Notes: a model not told the origin generated them from the letters alone. A stretch of 64,000 bases of DNA from an uncultured Gammaproteobacteria bacterium (GCA_964413645.1 CAYPSA010000005.1:2820-66819), one strand, 5' to 3'. Shown: positions 1,253-42,900, numbered from the stretch's first letter. Numbers and translations are program-made.

Positions 1253-2343
1253 CGTGTTACATTAAATGACTTCACTTGTTCCAATAGCGCTTTTGCTTCT
1301 TCATTTTCTTCAAAATGTTTGCGTACAGGCGCGAGTAGTTGGTCAATGAGTGAAGCGACGGTGTTTTTTAAGTCCATTGGGTGAATTTCTTTGCTCACAA
1401 ACGCCCCCTCAAGTGCCTCATATGAGGTAAACGAGACATTTCCACCAAATTTTTCTGGTCGTTCAATGGTGATTTCGCTCAGTCCCAATCTTTCAAGCGA
1501 CTCAAAGATGATATATTTACAATATTCCAAAATTGGATTTTCTTCCACAATTCCTTCGGGACAATATGCTTTTGCAATTTTTCGAGAAATTTCTTCTGTC
1601 GAATCGGTCATGAAAATTGCGCTGTCAGGGTTGGATTTAGACATTTTCAAGTCGATTGTTCGGGTAACGGTGTCTGTCCCCTCGGCGACTGGTTTATGTT
1701 GTAAACCCAGTAACATATGATGACTGACTACAATTGGTTTTTGGAATCCTAACTGGTTAGCAATTTCACGTGCTAACATGTTAACTTTTCGCTGATCCAT
1801 GCCTAGTTGAGTTACTTTTGCATCTAAATAAAATACATCCGCGGCTTGCATGGCAACGTACATAAGCTGTGCTAAGGTGAGGCTGTCAGATTCTGCGCGG
1901 CCAATAATTTCTGCTGAATGGGCAAAGCGTTTAATCGAATTCGTTTTGGCGATTTTCATGACGAGTTCCCAGTAAGCGGGGTCTTTGACCGTGTCGCTTG
2001 CCCACAAAAATTCCACATGATTCATATCCATTCCTGCAGCTTTCCAGACTTCAATGAAATATTTCCCAACCGTTTGGATTTTTTCCAAATCACCATCCAT
2101 TTTGTTGTTCAAATACGCATGCCAGTCGGCTACCAACATTTTAAAATGGGCGCCGGTTGCAATGGCCTTGTTTACATTAATTACTCGTAAAATTCCGGCG
2201 GCAATATGCATTTGCCCCGAAGGTTCAAAGCCGTCATAACAGGTAAAGGAGTCATTTTTAGAGAGAAAATCGATGAGCTCTTCTTGGGTTACAATTTCTT
2301 GCCCAACTTCATTAAGGAGTTTTGCGCGTTCGTCGGTGGTCAT
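1249..2343 (-). CDS. tyrS: Tyrosyl-tRNA synthetase (archaeal/eukaryote-like short class I type)
   Basis: YDGFEPSGQMHIAAG (HIGH-like) and KMSKSNP (KMSKS) motifs. A separate bacterial-type trpS is present, so this one is TyrRS. Start moved to ATG 2343 (MTTDERAKLL), which lies 6 nt downstream of a TGcTATAAT box. Confidence 0.8.
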   Translation of the reverse strand: MTTDERAKLLNEVGQEIVTQEELIDFLSKNDSFTCYDGFEPSGQMHIAAGILRVINVNKAIATGAHFKMLVADWHAYLNNKMDGDLEKIQTVGKYFIEVWKAAGMDMNHVEFLWASDTVKDPAYWELVMKIAKTNSIKRFAHSAEIIGRAESDSLTLAQLMYVAMQAADVFYLDAKVTQLGMDQRKVNMLAREIANQLGFQKPIVVSHHMLLGLQHKPVAEGTDTVTRTIDLKMSKSNPDSAIFMTDSTEEISRKIAKAYCPEGIVEENPILEYCKYIIFESLERLGLSEITIERPEKFGGNVSFTSYEALEGAFVSKEIHPMDLKNTVASLIDQLLAPVRKHFEENEEAKALLEQVKSFNVTR

Positions 2344-2349
2344 GGAAGT

Positions 2350-2358
2350 ATTATAGCA
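2350..2358 (-). promoter_or_regulatory. Extended -10 box (TGcTATAAT) 6 nt upstream of tyrS ATG; leaderless-type promoter
   Basis: Minus strand reads ...tttTGcTATAATacttccATG. No Shine-Dalgarno sequence is possible in a 6-nt gap. Confidence 0.5.
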
Positions 2359-2463
2359 AAATAGAATGATTTCTCGCTCGATGATGTATATTGCTCGCAA
2401 TTCACCCCTCGGTCCCCCCAATTGACTTCGTAAAATATTATCTTCGCTCGAATCGGCTCTATA

Positions 2464-2796
2464 TTATTGACTAATTACTTCTGTAGGCTTGATCGCTGGA
2501 GTCGGCTCTGTACACGTAATCAGCACGCTCGACTGCCGTACCCGTAATTTTGACTCCGGCGAAGCCAGCTTGTACACCGTTTTACAATTTTTATCCGTAA
2601 TTTCCCTCAAAACTTGTGCGGGAATTCCCAAAGCAACGGTTGGGGTAGGTGTGAGGGTAATCGTGGGAGTGGGGGAAGGGGGAACGTACACGCTGTCGGC
2701 AAGCCCCACATGTTTTCCATAGCGAAAACCCATTAAAAACAAGGCTATACAAGCTAAGACGGCAAGGAATAGTAAGGATCGGATGTTTTTGGGCAT
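2464..2796 (-). CDS. Hypothetical membrane-anchored protein
   Basis: 110 aa. N-terminal TM helix (LLFLAVLACIALFLMGF) followed by a Pro/Thr linker (PPSPTPTITLTPTPT). Confidence 0.6.
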   Translation of the reverse strand: MPKNIRSLLFLAVLACIALFLMGFRYGKHVGLADSVYVPPSPTPTITLTPTPTVALGIPAQVLREITDKNCKTVYKLASPESKLRVRQSSVLITCTEPTPAIKPTEVISQ

Positions 2797-2808
2797 GTGC
2801 TAAGTATA

Positions 2809-39732: not shown

Positions 39733-39738
39733 AGTCTC

Positions 39739-39744
39739 ACTATA
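39739..39744 (-). promoter_or_regulatory. -10 box TATAGT 6 nt upstream of ATG 39732 (head of the ATPase operon)
   Basis: Minus strand reads ttattgTATAGTgagactATG. Confidence 0.45.
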
Positions 39745-39890
39745 CAATAAAAATAAGGGGTCGTGTTAAGGATTTGCCGAGAGAATTTTGAGTTTCTGCC
39801 TACGATTTCTAATTTTCCTATTGTAGTAATACGGCCTAATATACGGGTGGGGGTATACCGTATTTGATCCTGTTTTATAGCAATTTGCTC

Positions 39891-39919
39891 TTGATTTCCT
39901 TATTAATATTGATTAGTCT
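39891..39919 (+). promoter_or_regulatory. Promoter TTGATT-17-TAGTCT, 10 nt upstream of the giant-gene ATG
   Basis: TTGATT at 39891-39896 and TAGTCT at 39914-39919; the ATG is at 39930. No SD is visible. Confidence 0.4.
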
Positions 39920-39929
39920 GATATAAGCA

Positions 39930-42900
39930 ATGAACCATTTTTTTCAACAAACAGCAAGCATCCTTGCAGGACTAGTATTACTAGTTTCATCTACTGTAGC
40001 ATCATTGCCAGAAAAATTCCACGACTTTACGAGCAAATTTTCATACAAGCCCCCAGTTACTTCACCGGCTAAAAAAAAGACTGCCCAAAGCCAGAAATCT
40101 TTCCCGGCAGTACTAGCAGCAACGATCGATCGAACTAAAACGGGAGTTACGTTCACTATTCCTGCATTCTTCAAAGATTTAGTAACGCTCGATTCATCGC
40201 TTGAAGTTAACGGACCAAGTACGTTTAACGACAAAGTTACTCTTACTAATCAGGATCTTGATTTAGGAACTGGTGAATTAACCGCTTCAAACGTGCTGTA
40301 CGGTTTGACTGCGGGCAATGGAATTTTGATAAGTGAAGGTCAAACACCTGAAATTAAACTTGACTTAAACGTGGTTTCATCTATTTCGGGCAGAACGGGC
40401 GACGTTGATTTGGAAGAAGGAAGTGGTATTAGTATCGATGGGTTAGAAATTACTAATTCCGACAAAGGTTCTGCTCAGAATATTTTTAAGACTTTCTCTG
40501 TTTCGGGACAAAGTGATATTGTGGCCAATTCCAACACAAGCAAGCTTACGTTTGTGGCAGGAGAAGGTACCGTGCTTACCACCGATGCAACCGCAAAAAC
40601 ACTCACGATTACGAGTAATTTTAATAATTCTGGATGGGTCGACGAGGGTGCAATCATTCGACTGTCAGGCATTTCGGACAGTGTGGGAATTGGCACAAGC
40701 TCACCAGCCAACAAACTTTCAGTCGTTGGAAATACTGATATTTCAGGCAACTTGGGAATTGGCACAACCACTCCAGCATACAAACTTGATGTTGCAGGCA
40801 ATGCTAATCTCTCATCCGGTTCCACCTACAAAATCAATGGAGCGGACGTTCTTTCTGCCTCAGGACTTGGTGTTGGAGTAACAGCCTCATCACTCACTAG
40901 TCTTGGTACTCTTGGAAACGTAACGGTAACTGGTACTTCTGCCTTAAACGGAGGAATCACGTTTGATAATGCAACCGATACGATCTCTGCCTTTACTGCC
41001 GGCGGAACCATTAACCTTGCAAACAACCTCATAACCAACGTTGGAAATGCTGGTACTGACTTTACTGCAAGTGGTGGGTTAACGCTCGCGGGGCTTCTCA
41101 CAGCCTCATCTGGAATTTCACTCGACGCAGAAACAGTTACTGACTTTTCAGGAAATGGAATCGTAGTTACGAGTAATTCGCTATTTGTCAACTTGACGAC
41201 CAGTAGCAATACAGGCGCAACCTCATCAAATTCAGGTTTGGAAGTAGGTACGGCTGGACTCACATTGCTTAAGGGTTGTTCAGATGGAGAGCTTCTTAAA
41301 TATACCGATGCTGGCGGATGGGCATGTTCGACTGATATCGATACAACATCGGGATCTGCTTCCGGATTCACAGATTTTGGGAGCATTGTTGCTTTAATAA
41401 CATCAGCAGATAACCTAGGAGTCGGAACAAGCTCGCCAACCAACAAGCTTTCAGTGGTTGGTACCGCAGACATCTCGGGTAATTTGGGAGTTGGCACAAC
41501 GACTCCTGGATATAAATTAGACGTTGCGGGAAACGCGAATCTTGCGTCAGGATTTACGTATAAAGTAAATGGAAACGATGTTTTGTCAGGTACTACATTG
41601 GGAGTTGGGGTAACTTCTTCCTCCCTCACTCAACTAGGGGCGCTCGGAAACTTAACAGTCACCGGAGCAATTGTTGGAAATGGGGGACTCACTCTTGCCG
41701 CCGGTCAGACTTTGAATGTAAATTCTGACGCAATTACTGACTTAACTGGAAATGGAATTGTGTTGAGCGGCGGTACATTAACGGTCGGACTTACTTCTTC
41801 CGGAACAACAGGATCCAGCTCATCAAATTCGGGTTTGGAAGTAGGATCTGCCGGTCTAACACTTCTCAAAGGCTGTTCGGATAATGAATTGCTCAAATAC
41901 ACCGATGCTTCCGGCTGGGCATGTGCGATTGATATAGACACAACTGGAGCAAACCTAGCGGGCTTCACCGACTTCGGCTCAATTGTAGCTCTTACTACCA
42001 CCGCAGATAACTTGGGAGTCGGAACAAGTTCACCAACTAACAAACTCTCAGTAGTCGGTACCGCAGATATCTCAGGAAATCTTGGAATTGGCACAACAGC
42101 CCCTGCTTATAAACTCGACGTTGCAGGAAATGTAAATCTCTCAACCGGATCAACGCTCAAGATTAACGGAACTGATGTGTTATCTGCTTCCGGACTTGGT
42201 GTGGGAGTCACTGCATCGAGCTTAACAAGTCTTGGAACACTCGGAAACGTAACAGTAACCGGAGTATCGGCCCTTAATGGCGGAATCACGTTTGATAGTA
42301 CAACCGACACCATTTCTGCTTTCACTGCCGGTGGAACGATTAATATGGCGACGAATATAATTACTGACATTGGCAATAGCGGAACTGATTTTACGGGAGC
42401 AGGTGGGCTTAATTTGGCAGGTCTACTTACTGCGTTATCCGGTGTTTCAATCAATTCAGAAACAGTTACCGATTTTTCAGGTAGCGGAATTAGCGTATCA
42501 GGCAATGCATTAACAGTGAATCTAACTTCCTCTGGAACCACCGGTTCAACATCCTCTAATTCAGGTCTTGAGGTTGGATCAGGTGGGCTTACACTCCTCA
42601 AAGGCTGTACTGACGGAGAGCTTCTCAAATATACCGACGCAGGTGGATGGGCATGTGCAACTGACACTGATACTAATACCAATACTTCAGGATTCACCGA
42701 TTTTGGAAGTATCGTCGCACTCACCACCACCGCAGATAACTTGGGAGTCGGAACAAGCTCGCCAACAAACAAACTCTCAGTAGTCGGAAACACAGATATC
42801 TCGGGTAACTTGGGAGTTGGAACAACTACTCCAGCATACAAACTTGACGTTGCTGGTTCAACCAATCTCTCATCAGGCTCCACCTACAAAATCAATGGAA

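Follow-up and report, generated by a model that had tools for sequence, protein, structure and literature searches.

It has been recognized that in several groups of bacteria a promoter element lies next to the start codon. In the classification of GeneMarkS-2, genomes of group C have a Pribnow box 6-8 nucleotides (nt) away from where the first genes of operons begin (Lomsadze et al. 2018, PMC6028130), and the genes called 'TA-led' carry the corresponding signature of a -10 box at the start (Zheng et al. 2011, PMC3160421). The group C/TA-led organization has been seen mainly in Actinobacteria and Deinococcus-Thermus and is typified by Mycobacterium, Streptomyces, Corynebacterium and Deinococcus; in group C 25-50% of the transcripts were predicted to be leaderless, and in D. 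deserti 167 of the 262 mapped genes were assigned to this type (PMC6028130). Some low-GC Mycoplasma genomes, which use genetic code 4, have also been classed in group C, with 30-60% of the genes predicted to be leaderless (10.1101/2022.07.25.500264). In the Bacteroidota-type group B one and the same motif stands before every gene, also within operons, and hence is not a promoter (PMC6028130). Here we describe a 64-kb stretch of DNA from an uncultured bacterium (CAYPSA010000005.1:2820-66819, GC 42%; the whole stretch is called the window), in which a -10-like hexamer stands a few nt before the ATG of most first genes. As in the group C and TA-led genes, the Pribnow box is found 6-8 nt before first-gene starts, and transcription and translation would start at the same place. 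It is quite probable that this organism expresses most of its transcription units as leaderless or near-leaderless mRNAs, with the downstream genes translationally coupled.

The analysis was done with 42 curated genes, comprising 20 internal genes and 22 unit heads, a head being a gene that is divergent from its upstream neighbour or at least 36 nt away from the upstream gene. A hexamer was considered strong if it had the form TAnnnT and matched TATAAT in at least five of the six positions. In the notation hexamer-n-ATG, n is the number of nt between the -10 hexamer and the ATG, and TGn before the hexamer marks an extended box. The boxes at the individual genes were the following (ORF, open reading frame):

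304..318, minus strand: head of a glycosyltransferase gene, TACAAT-6-ATG 306
2341..2355, minus strand: tyrS head, TGcTATAAT-6-ATG 2343; the longest ORF over-extends to TTG 2421
ATG 2796: the 2796 gene, TATACT-6-ATG 2796
3831..3870, minus strand: head of the 3833 gene, TTGACA-16 bp-TATAAT-9-ATG 3833, a 12/12 promoter match
6198..6212, minus strand: MOSC head, TGaTATAAT-6-ATG 6200
6331..6344, plus strand: head of the 6342 gene, TGcTATAAT-5-ATG 6342
7441..7483, plus strand: gdh head, TTGACA-18 bp-TATACT-10-ATG 7481, an 11/12 promoter match
9803..9862, minus strand: FkbM methyltransferase gene, TATAAT-12, ATG 9805
9803..9862, plus strand: M23 peptidase gene, TGgTATAAT-10, ATG 9860
13126..13164, minus strand: TPR gene, TTGAAA-17 bp-TACAAT-7-ATG 13128, with the promoter sitting in the end of the upstream gene
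16910..16949, minus strand: head of the 16912 gene, TAGCAT-8-ATG 16912 preceded at 17 bp by a perfect TTGACA
18641..18657, plus strand: comEA head, TATGAT-8-ATG 18655
22379..22423, minus strand: the 22381 gene, TATAAT-7
22379..22423, plus strand: secE head, TGcTACAAT-7, ATG 22421
27156..27193, minus strand: glyA head, TTGCAA-17 bp-TATAGT-6-ATG 27158
27375..27389, plus strand: trpS head, TGtTACAAT-6-ATG 27387; the longest ORF over-extends to GTG 27369
ATG 31002: M16 peptidase gene, TGaTATAAT-11
33090..33104, plus strand: ndk head, TACAAT-6-ATG 33102
39730..39744, minus strand: head of the ATPase operon, TATAGT-6-ATG 39732
39930, plus strand: first giant gene, TAGTCT at 10 nt, a 3/6 match

An earlier note on this DNA had reported such boxes 5-10 nt from the start codons of operon heads. 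On re-reading, its hexamers and spacings were recovered for tyrS, MOSC, the 6342 gene, glyA, trpS, ndk, the ATPase operon head, secE, the 22381 gene, comEA, the 16912 gene, the 3833 gene, gdh and M23, and the boxes of the glycosyltransferase, 2796, FkbM, TPR and M16 peptidase genes are additions to its list. The box at 10 nt that it had assigned to the giant gene is not convincing, as the hexamer there matches at three positions only. The window includes full or near-consensus promoters (TTGACA-16-TATAAT, TTGACA-18-TATACT and TTGACA-17-TAGCAT). For the 3833 gene a leader of about 2-3 nt is expected. The ATGs of the divergent FkbM and M23 genes are separated by 54 nt, and those of secE and the 22381 gene by 39 nt only, within which both -10 boxes are located; thus neither of the latter two genes has space for a 5' untranslated region bearing a Shine-Dalgarno (SD) sequence.

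A strong hexamer 5-10 nt before the ATG was found at 15 of the 22 heads and at only 1 of the 20 internal genes (Fisher p = 2e-5). This bears out the earlier statement that the first genes of most transcription units are boxed, with rho (ATG 4210) as a head that lacks the box. The spacing was 5-8 nt at 12 of the 22 heads, and the most frequent value was 6 nt. As a background, 2.4% of all 2196 ATG trinucleotides of the window carry a hexamer at 5-10 nt (binomial p = 8e-20), and when the 45 nt before each head were shuffled with dinucleotides preserved, 2.0 ± 1.3 boxed heads resulted, with a maximum of 7 in 2000 shuffles. All 42 curated genes start with ATG. The distances were also determined in a start-free manner, by counting the hexamers before each ATG that can serve as the start of an ORF of 80 or more codons, if the ATG is close to the 5' end of the ORF. 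By this test 7 hexamers were counted at 6 nt in the window, where the background is 0.62 per position (Poisson p = 4e-6). An artefact caused by in-frame TAA within the hexamer was considered and rejected: it predicts peaks at 2, 5, 8 and 11 nt, whereas the actual peaks are at 6, 7 and 9 nt.

On the basis of its LeuS sequence, which is 50-57% identical to the LeuS proteins of Microgenomates and Roizmanbacteria genomes and less close to those of Parcubacteria, Saccharibacteria and Firmicutes, the source can be assigned to the Microgenomates group of the Candidate Phyla Radiation (CPR, Patescibacteria), whose members are ultra-small. Many of the public bins whose LeuS is closest to that of the window, from binchicken co-assemblies, are titled 'uncultured Gammaproteobacteria' or 'Pseudomonadales'; LeuS similarity groups these bins with Microgenomates and Roizmanbacteria, and by this measure the taxonomy labels on those records look wrong.

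Two sets of relatives were used, leuS-centred genome loci (0.3 Mb) and independent rho-centred metagenome loci (80 loci, 0.8 Mb). Among close Microgenomates-like relatives (19 loci, 0.3 Mb) the start-free counts at 6, 7, 8, 9 and 10 nt were 24, 25, 13, 25 and 9 against a background of 4.6, and 102 hexamers were counted at 5-10 nt where 27.5 were expected, with an SD ratio of 1.5. The -10 and SD ratios were 2.6 and 2.2 in other Microgenomates, 3.1 and 2.5 in Saccharibacteria, 1.7 and 0.6 in Parcubacteria, and 0.8 and 4.2 in a Firmicutes control of the same GC content. In the rho-centred loci 76 hexamers were found at 6 nt and 33 at 7 nt (background 10.7), and the SD peak was 25 versus 8.5. The replication in the two locus sets corresponds to p values of about 1e-27 and 1e-38. 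At the gene level, about 60% of the divergent heads of the close relatives are boxed at 5-12 nt, compared with about 5% in control windows further upstream. A secondary peak of spacing is present at 9-10 nt in the relatives, where A or G is frequently found 2-3 nt ahead of the ATG (for example in CATATG).

Around leuS the relatives share little of the gene order, which limited the comparison of orthologues to tyrS, leuS and the M16 peptidase gene, with a few sequences of trpS, glyA and ndk. The tyrS orthologues of six relatives have TATAAT or TAATAT 6-9 nt from the ATG, and the box is kept at this distance at the M16 peptidase gene in nine relatives and at leuS in eight, in surroundings that have diverged. 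In Firmicutes leuS genes GGAGG takes the place of the -10 box. The architecture of the boxes, their statistics, their restriction to head genes and their conservation in the clade are thus matters of direct observation.

The hexamers linked to starts have further properties of promoters. TGn, for which the filter did not select, precedes 36% of them and 6% of the other hexamers of the same form, and TTG is present 16-18 bp upstream, at the place of a -35 element, in 31% versus 8%, so that the two features are 4-6 times enriched. The peak is confined to ATG: the counts were 3, 2, 4 and 2 for GTG (background 2.1) and 1, 5, 1 and 3 for TTG (background 3.3). Leaderless translation strongly prefers AUG. 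The base at -1 is C or T in 36 of the 43 sites with 6-nt spacing, and if the 6- and 7-nt classes are pooled, a pyrimidine is found there in 56 of 74 (76%), compared with 57% of the other candidate ATGs. Across 49 bacteria, the transcription start is fixed by a Y-R-Y start element whose centre lies 7-8 bp past the -10 box (PMC12641261). A spacing of 6-7 nt makes the A of the ATG the seventh or eighth base after the -10 box, which is the preferred start of RNA polymerase, and a pyrimidine at -1 followed by A(+1) and T(+2) has the geometry of this element. Of 61 tightly coupled internal starts 2 have the hexamer, a frequency equal to that of control windows, and its absence before coupled internal genes rules out a general ribosome-binding motif. 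Because of the TGn and -35 sequences, the peak at ATG only, the pyrimidine at -1, the absence at coupled genes and the conservation in orthologues, the start-linked hexamer is, as judged from its sequence context, a promoter. Every prediction of the earlier claim of widespread leaderless mRNAs that could be tested at the sequence level (spacing, pyrimidine at -1, TGn and -35, ATG only, heads only, orthologues) came out as expected, and a check of the kind proposed for it, comparison of hexamer-to-start distances with shuffled controls, gave enrichment in the window and in the relatives' loci and an excess over shuffles at the heads.

It had also been proposed that the pattern fixes start codons which the longest ORFs over-extend, and the positions of Pfam domains, the N-termini of orthologues and independent gene calls all agree with the shorter starts. 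Domain positions fit the shorter TyrS, TrpS and Ndk (in TrpS the domain begins at residue 5), and the N-terminus of TyrS aligns from residue 1 in seven relatives. The calls of an independent pipeline match for trpS (333 amino acids, aa), secE (65 aa) and comEA (205 aa) as well as for comEC and rplA, and in the TPR protein and the product of the 21858 gene a signal or anchor peptide lies right at the new N-terminus. The starts fixed in the window by a promoter-at-start model are those of tyrS, trpS, ndk, secE, comEA, the M23 peptidase gene and the TPR gene.

Internal genes follow closely on the stop codons of their upstream neighbours. Fourteen of the 20 start at -4 (ATGA), +1 or +2 relative to the upstream stop, one starts at -14, and five have gaps of 8-12 nt; the junction histograms peak at -4, +1 and +2 nt in the window and in the relatives alike. 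The ATGA overlaps described before at 1249, 8803 and 37993 were correct. The nusG, rplA and 21858 genes are joined to the upstream stops by TAAtATG-like junctions, and the other junctions are:

33831..38926, minus strand: internal genes of the ATPase operon, atpF +2, atpH +1, atpA -4 (ATGA), atpG +2, atpD +2, atpC +1, with no SD at 4-11 nt
19270..20084, plus strand: comEA/comEC and comEC/MBL junctions, both TAAtATG with a 1-nt gap and without SD
19270-19276, 20078-20084, 22616-22622, 23666-23672, 34094-34098 and 38424-38428: heptamer junctions

The heptamer TAAtATG (or TGAtATG, TAAcATG), with 1 nt between stop and start, is a recurring junction, and in the window the +1/+2 class is as common as the classic ATGA overlap is in the relatives.

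GGAG, GAGG or AGGA at 4-11 nt was found before none of the 42 window genes, and there are 2 start-linked SD cores at 4-10 nt in the window where about 6 are expected. Of the earlier description of internal genes as either coupled or SD-led, tight stop/start coupling was thus seen in most cases and the SD-led class was not. The example given for the latter was atpD. Its GGAGG ends 12 nt before ATG 35472, too far away, and this ATG, which gives the usual N-terminus of a beta subunit, is 2 nt past the atpG stop; atpD therefore looks coupled rather than clearly SD-led. At coupled starts, SD sequences were present in 5 of 61 cases in the genome-locus relatives, which equals the background, and in 12 of 20 in Firmicutes; in the rho-centred set they were present in 12 of 63, against a background of 3-5. 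These sequence counts suggest that the SD is probably little used in the clade and not lost. From the stop/start spacing it is likely that the internal genes are translated by termination-reinitiation.

The exceptional head gene, rho, has a different upstream region:

3891..4212, plus strand: rho region, with a perfect TTGACA-16-TATAAT promoter at 3891-3918, 291 nt before ATG 4210
3891-4122, plus strand: promoter and RNA in the window; further copies in loci L083-L137, e.g. L095:9507-9680 and L122:3194-3366

A structured, conserved RNA of about 190 nt (3925-4113), which is not annotated, is located downstream of this promoter and upstream of rho. The promoter would drive the structured RNA, so rho would have a long leader. 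In the 29 relatives listed there is no good -10 box at a leaderless distance from the rho ATG, and four of them have a weaker 5/6 hexamer at 9-11 nt. At least 39 further rho-centred loci have the RNA upstream of rho, behind a consensus promoter of its own; together with the window this makes at least 40 distinct copies, which are 169-211 nt long, and 7 nt upstream of each is a near-consensus TTGACA-N17-TATACT/TATAAT promoter. The 5' end GAUCCUCC, which resembles an anti-SD sequence, pairs with the 3' end GGAGGGUC (GGAGGAUC in most relatives). The molecule folds as a closed rod (z = -4.3 versus shuffles) in which the closing stem is followed by the conserved helix ACUUUUUCU/GGGAAAAAGU, then by an internal loop that is large and asymmetric, and by two hairpins. 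Sixteen members were used for a consensus structure, in which compensatory changes occur at 26 of the 47 pairs. No Rfam 15 family was matched at E <= 1, nor, in 11 loci, at E <= 10. The RNA could be a regulatory leader or attenuator of rho, or a 6S-like small RNA.

In the mechanism envisaged for the other heads, sigma-70-type promoters with a strong -10 box, often a TGn and a weak -35 element would abut the start codons of most units. RNA polymerase would start 7-8 bases past the -10 box, at the A of the ATG, which is preceded by a pyrimidine, and AUG would be the 5' end of the mRNA, or would be preceded by 2-5 additional bases where the spacing is 9-12 nt. Translation would not involve SD pairing; the ribosome presumably binds the 5'-terminal AUG directly, as in other leaderless systems. 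The downstream genes of a unit would be translated by termination-reinitiation at ATGA or TAAnATG, likewise without SD. Both the place where transcription starts and the way the ribosome initiates are what we infer from these sequence patterns.

Several points weigh against leaderless expression as the general rule. Where transcription starts is an extrapolation from other bacteria. Spacings as long as 9-12 nt (3833 gene, gdh, M23, FkbM, M16) imply short leaders and not strictly leaderless mRNAs. There is a weak SD peak in the relatives (ratio 1.5-2.2), and on the ribosome side the SD may be used. The anti-SD CCUCC is reported to be kept in most CPR groups, except part of Parcubacteria (PMC9297842). 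A search for the 3' end of 16S rRNA in all collected loci found none. At several heads one of two or more alternative start codons had to be picked, and this choice could have inflated the gene-level count. A large inflation is argued against by the peak of the start-free test and by those heads (MOSC, the 6342 gene, gdh, the 16912 gene, the 22381 gene and glyA) in which the ATG used is also the start of the longest ORF. Finally, a generic scan of positions 1-40000 for two-hexamer promoters gave no excess over shuffles (45 versus 46.9; 39 versus 47.0). The evidence is therefore the position of the boxes and not their number; counting promoter-like sites is uninformative here, and the signal resides only in the top-scoring sites and in their position relative to starts.

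The scan result, together with the AT-rich intergenic regions of a DNA of 42% GC, would suit the view that the pattern arises by chance or composition, or by a bias of ATG counting caused by the TAA in the hexamer. The chance of this is negligible, given that the shuffles fell far short of the 15 boxed heads observed, that Firmicutes loci of the same GC show no peak, that the peaks expected of the TAA artefact were not seen, and that the result was replicated in two independent sets of loci. A more substantial alternative is that the TA-rich hexamer acts in RNA, as an AU-rich, non-SD element of leadered mRNAs which binds the ribosome or S1, similarly to Bacteroidota. The essential absence of SD motifs is consistent with this, as is the AU-rich sequence ahead of many starts, that of the leadered rho included. 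Such an element should, however, also be carried by internal genes, where it was found at background level only, both in the window and at the coupled starts of relatives. TGn and a TTG at 16-18 bp matter to RNA polymerase only, the spacing peak is sharp and is accompanied by the pyrimidine at -1, and at the clearly leadered rho the hexamer is missing both from the window and from nearly all of the 29 relatives listed; we regard an RNA element as improbable.

Somewhat less improbable, though still unlikely, is that the promoters are real and that transcription starts nearer to the -10 box than in model bacteria, so that most mRNAs would have leaders of 1-5 nt. The secondary peak at 9-10 nt in the relatives, with its purines 2-3 nt before the ATG, and the four to five window heads with spacings of 9-12 nt speak for such a shift. 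Against it, Y(-1)A(+1)T(+2) at the main spacing peak of 6-7 nt coincides with the optimal start element of the 49 bacteria, and the practical consequence would be identical, since no room is left for an SD. Expression from leaderless or near-leaderless mRNAs starting at or next to the AUG of the heads remains the preferred explanation.

Compared with the described systems, the organization is a leaderless one of the known group C/TA-led kind, in a lineage for which we found no published description. About 60-70% of the heads would be leaderless, a share comparable to or above that of group C. The genome differs from group C in its lineage and GC content, since the group C genomes using code 11 are almost all high-GC, and in its promoters, which depend on the extended -10 box and have a weak -35 element. 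It also differs in that SD sequences at a working distance are missing from all 42 window genes, whereas the internal and leadered genes of group C use SD; their lack at the remaining genes is a difference from typical members and not from the leaderless feature itself. With Mycoplasma it shares a small, reduced, low-GC genome, but phylum and genetic code are different, and for Mycoplasma an SD model was still derived. The scarcity of SD and the AT-rich sequence before starts recall group B, from which it is distinguished by a motif that is confined to heads and has promoter features. In haloarchaea and Sulfolobus the first genes of most units are leaderless, and the downstream genes start at overlapping or adjacent stop and start codons with little use of SD. 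The leaderless share in these archaea is over 60% (PMC6028130). The likeness extends to leaderless heads, closely packed downstream genes and near-absence of SD, but the archaeal promoter box is about 26 nt upstream, is read by TBP and TFB, and is used with other initiation factors, while here a bacterial -10 box lies at 6-7 nt. Literature searches, which did not reach subscription journals, found no paper reporting leaderless mRNAs in CPR bacteria; a preprint on the TM7x transcriptome contains no discussion of 5' ends, and the only CPR transcription-start set found cited, that of Nanosynbacter lyticus, was inferred from RNA-seq coverage.

As to the remaining content of the window, Pfam matches identified tyrS, fmt, rho, gdh, comEA/comEC, secE-nusG-rplK-rplA, glyA, trpS, leuS, pilD, ndk, an F-type ATPase operon and two giant surface-protein genes; there is a single tRNA-Arg. 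The window sequence is also present in the Logan assemblies of runs SRR8893623 and SRR8893624. The following regions have unusual features:

16913-17707: a 795-nt stretch separating two divergent genes, unusually long for such a compact genome
33831-39732, minus strand: F-type ATPase operon with no recognizable a subunit (atpB) and no canonical c subunit
38929-39732, minus strand: first ORF of this operon, 267 aa
39930-57110, plus strand: giant gene, 5726 aa
57161-63649, plus strand: adjacent giant gene, 2162 aa

The 795-nt stretch contains no ORF with a family match and has no Rfam match at E <= 1. The 267-aa product consists of a signal peptide, an unknown domain of about 170 residues and a C-terminal two-helix hairpin, which has only a weak ATP-synt_C match (E = 0.0046) and whose second helix lacks an obvious carboxylate; the operon's b-like and delta subunits are barely recognizable. 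The 2162-aa protein has eight Laminin_G_3/concanavalin-like lectin repeats, and the first 1357 residues of the 5726-aa protein matched no Pfam family. Both probably belong to the surface or attachment proteins that are typical of CPR episymbionts. The GC content of the region of the giant genes (46-48%) is higher than that of the remainder of the window.

By these results, a lineage that is very large, deep-branching and low in GC would join the bacteria that depend on leaderless mRNAs. Starts in CPR metagenome-assembled genomes have mostly been called by tools tuned to SD sequences, and a promoter-at-start model corrects many of them; annotation software may already model leaderless starts silently. 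The same model offers a ready prediction of transcription units and promoters in organisms most of which cannot be grown alone, and an extended -10 box, 6 nt and ATG make up an expression signal for engineering the few cultivable relatives. The findings suggest that SD is hardly used at all in these cells, which bears on initiation by reduced ribosomes and on ideas of leaderless translation as the ancestral mode. A wider generalization can be proposed only tentatively: in Microgenomates-type CPR bacteria, and partly in Saccharibacteria, initiation might be essentially SD-independent throughout the genome, with 5'-terminal AUGs at the heads and reinitiation downstream. CPR ribosomes have a short bS1, and bS21, uL1, bL9 or uL30 is often missing (PMC9297842). 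If the generalization is true, SD-independent initiation would be a bacterial counterpart of the haloarchaeal mode, and it might be connected with the reduced ribosomes of the CPR.

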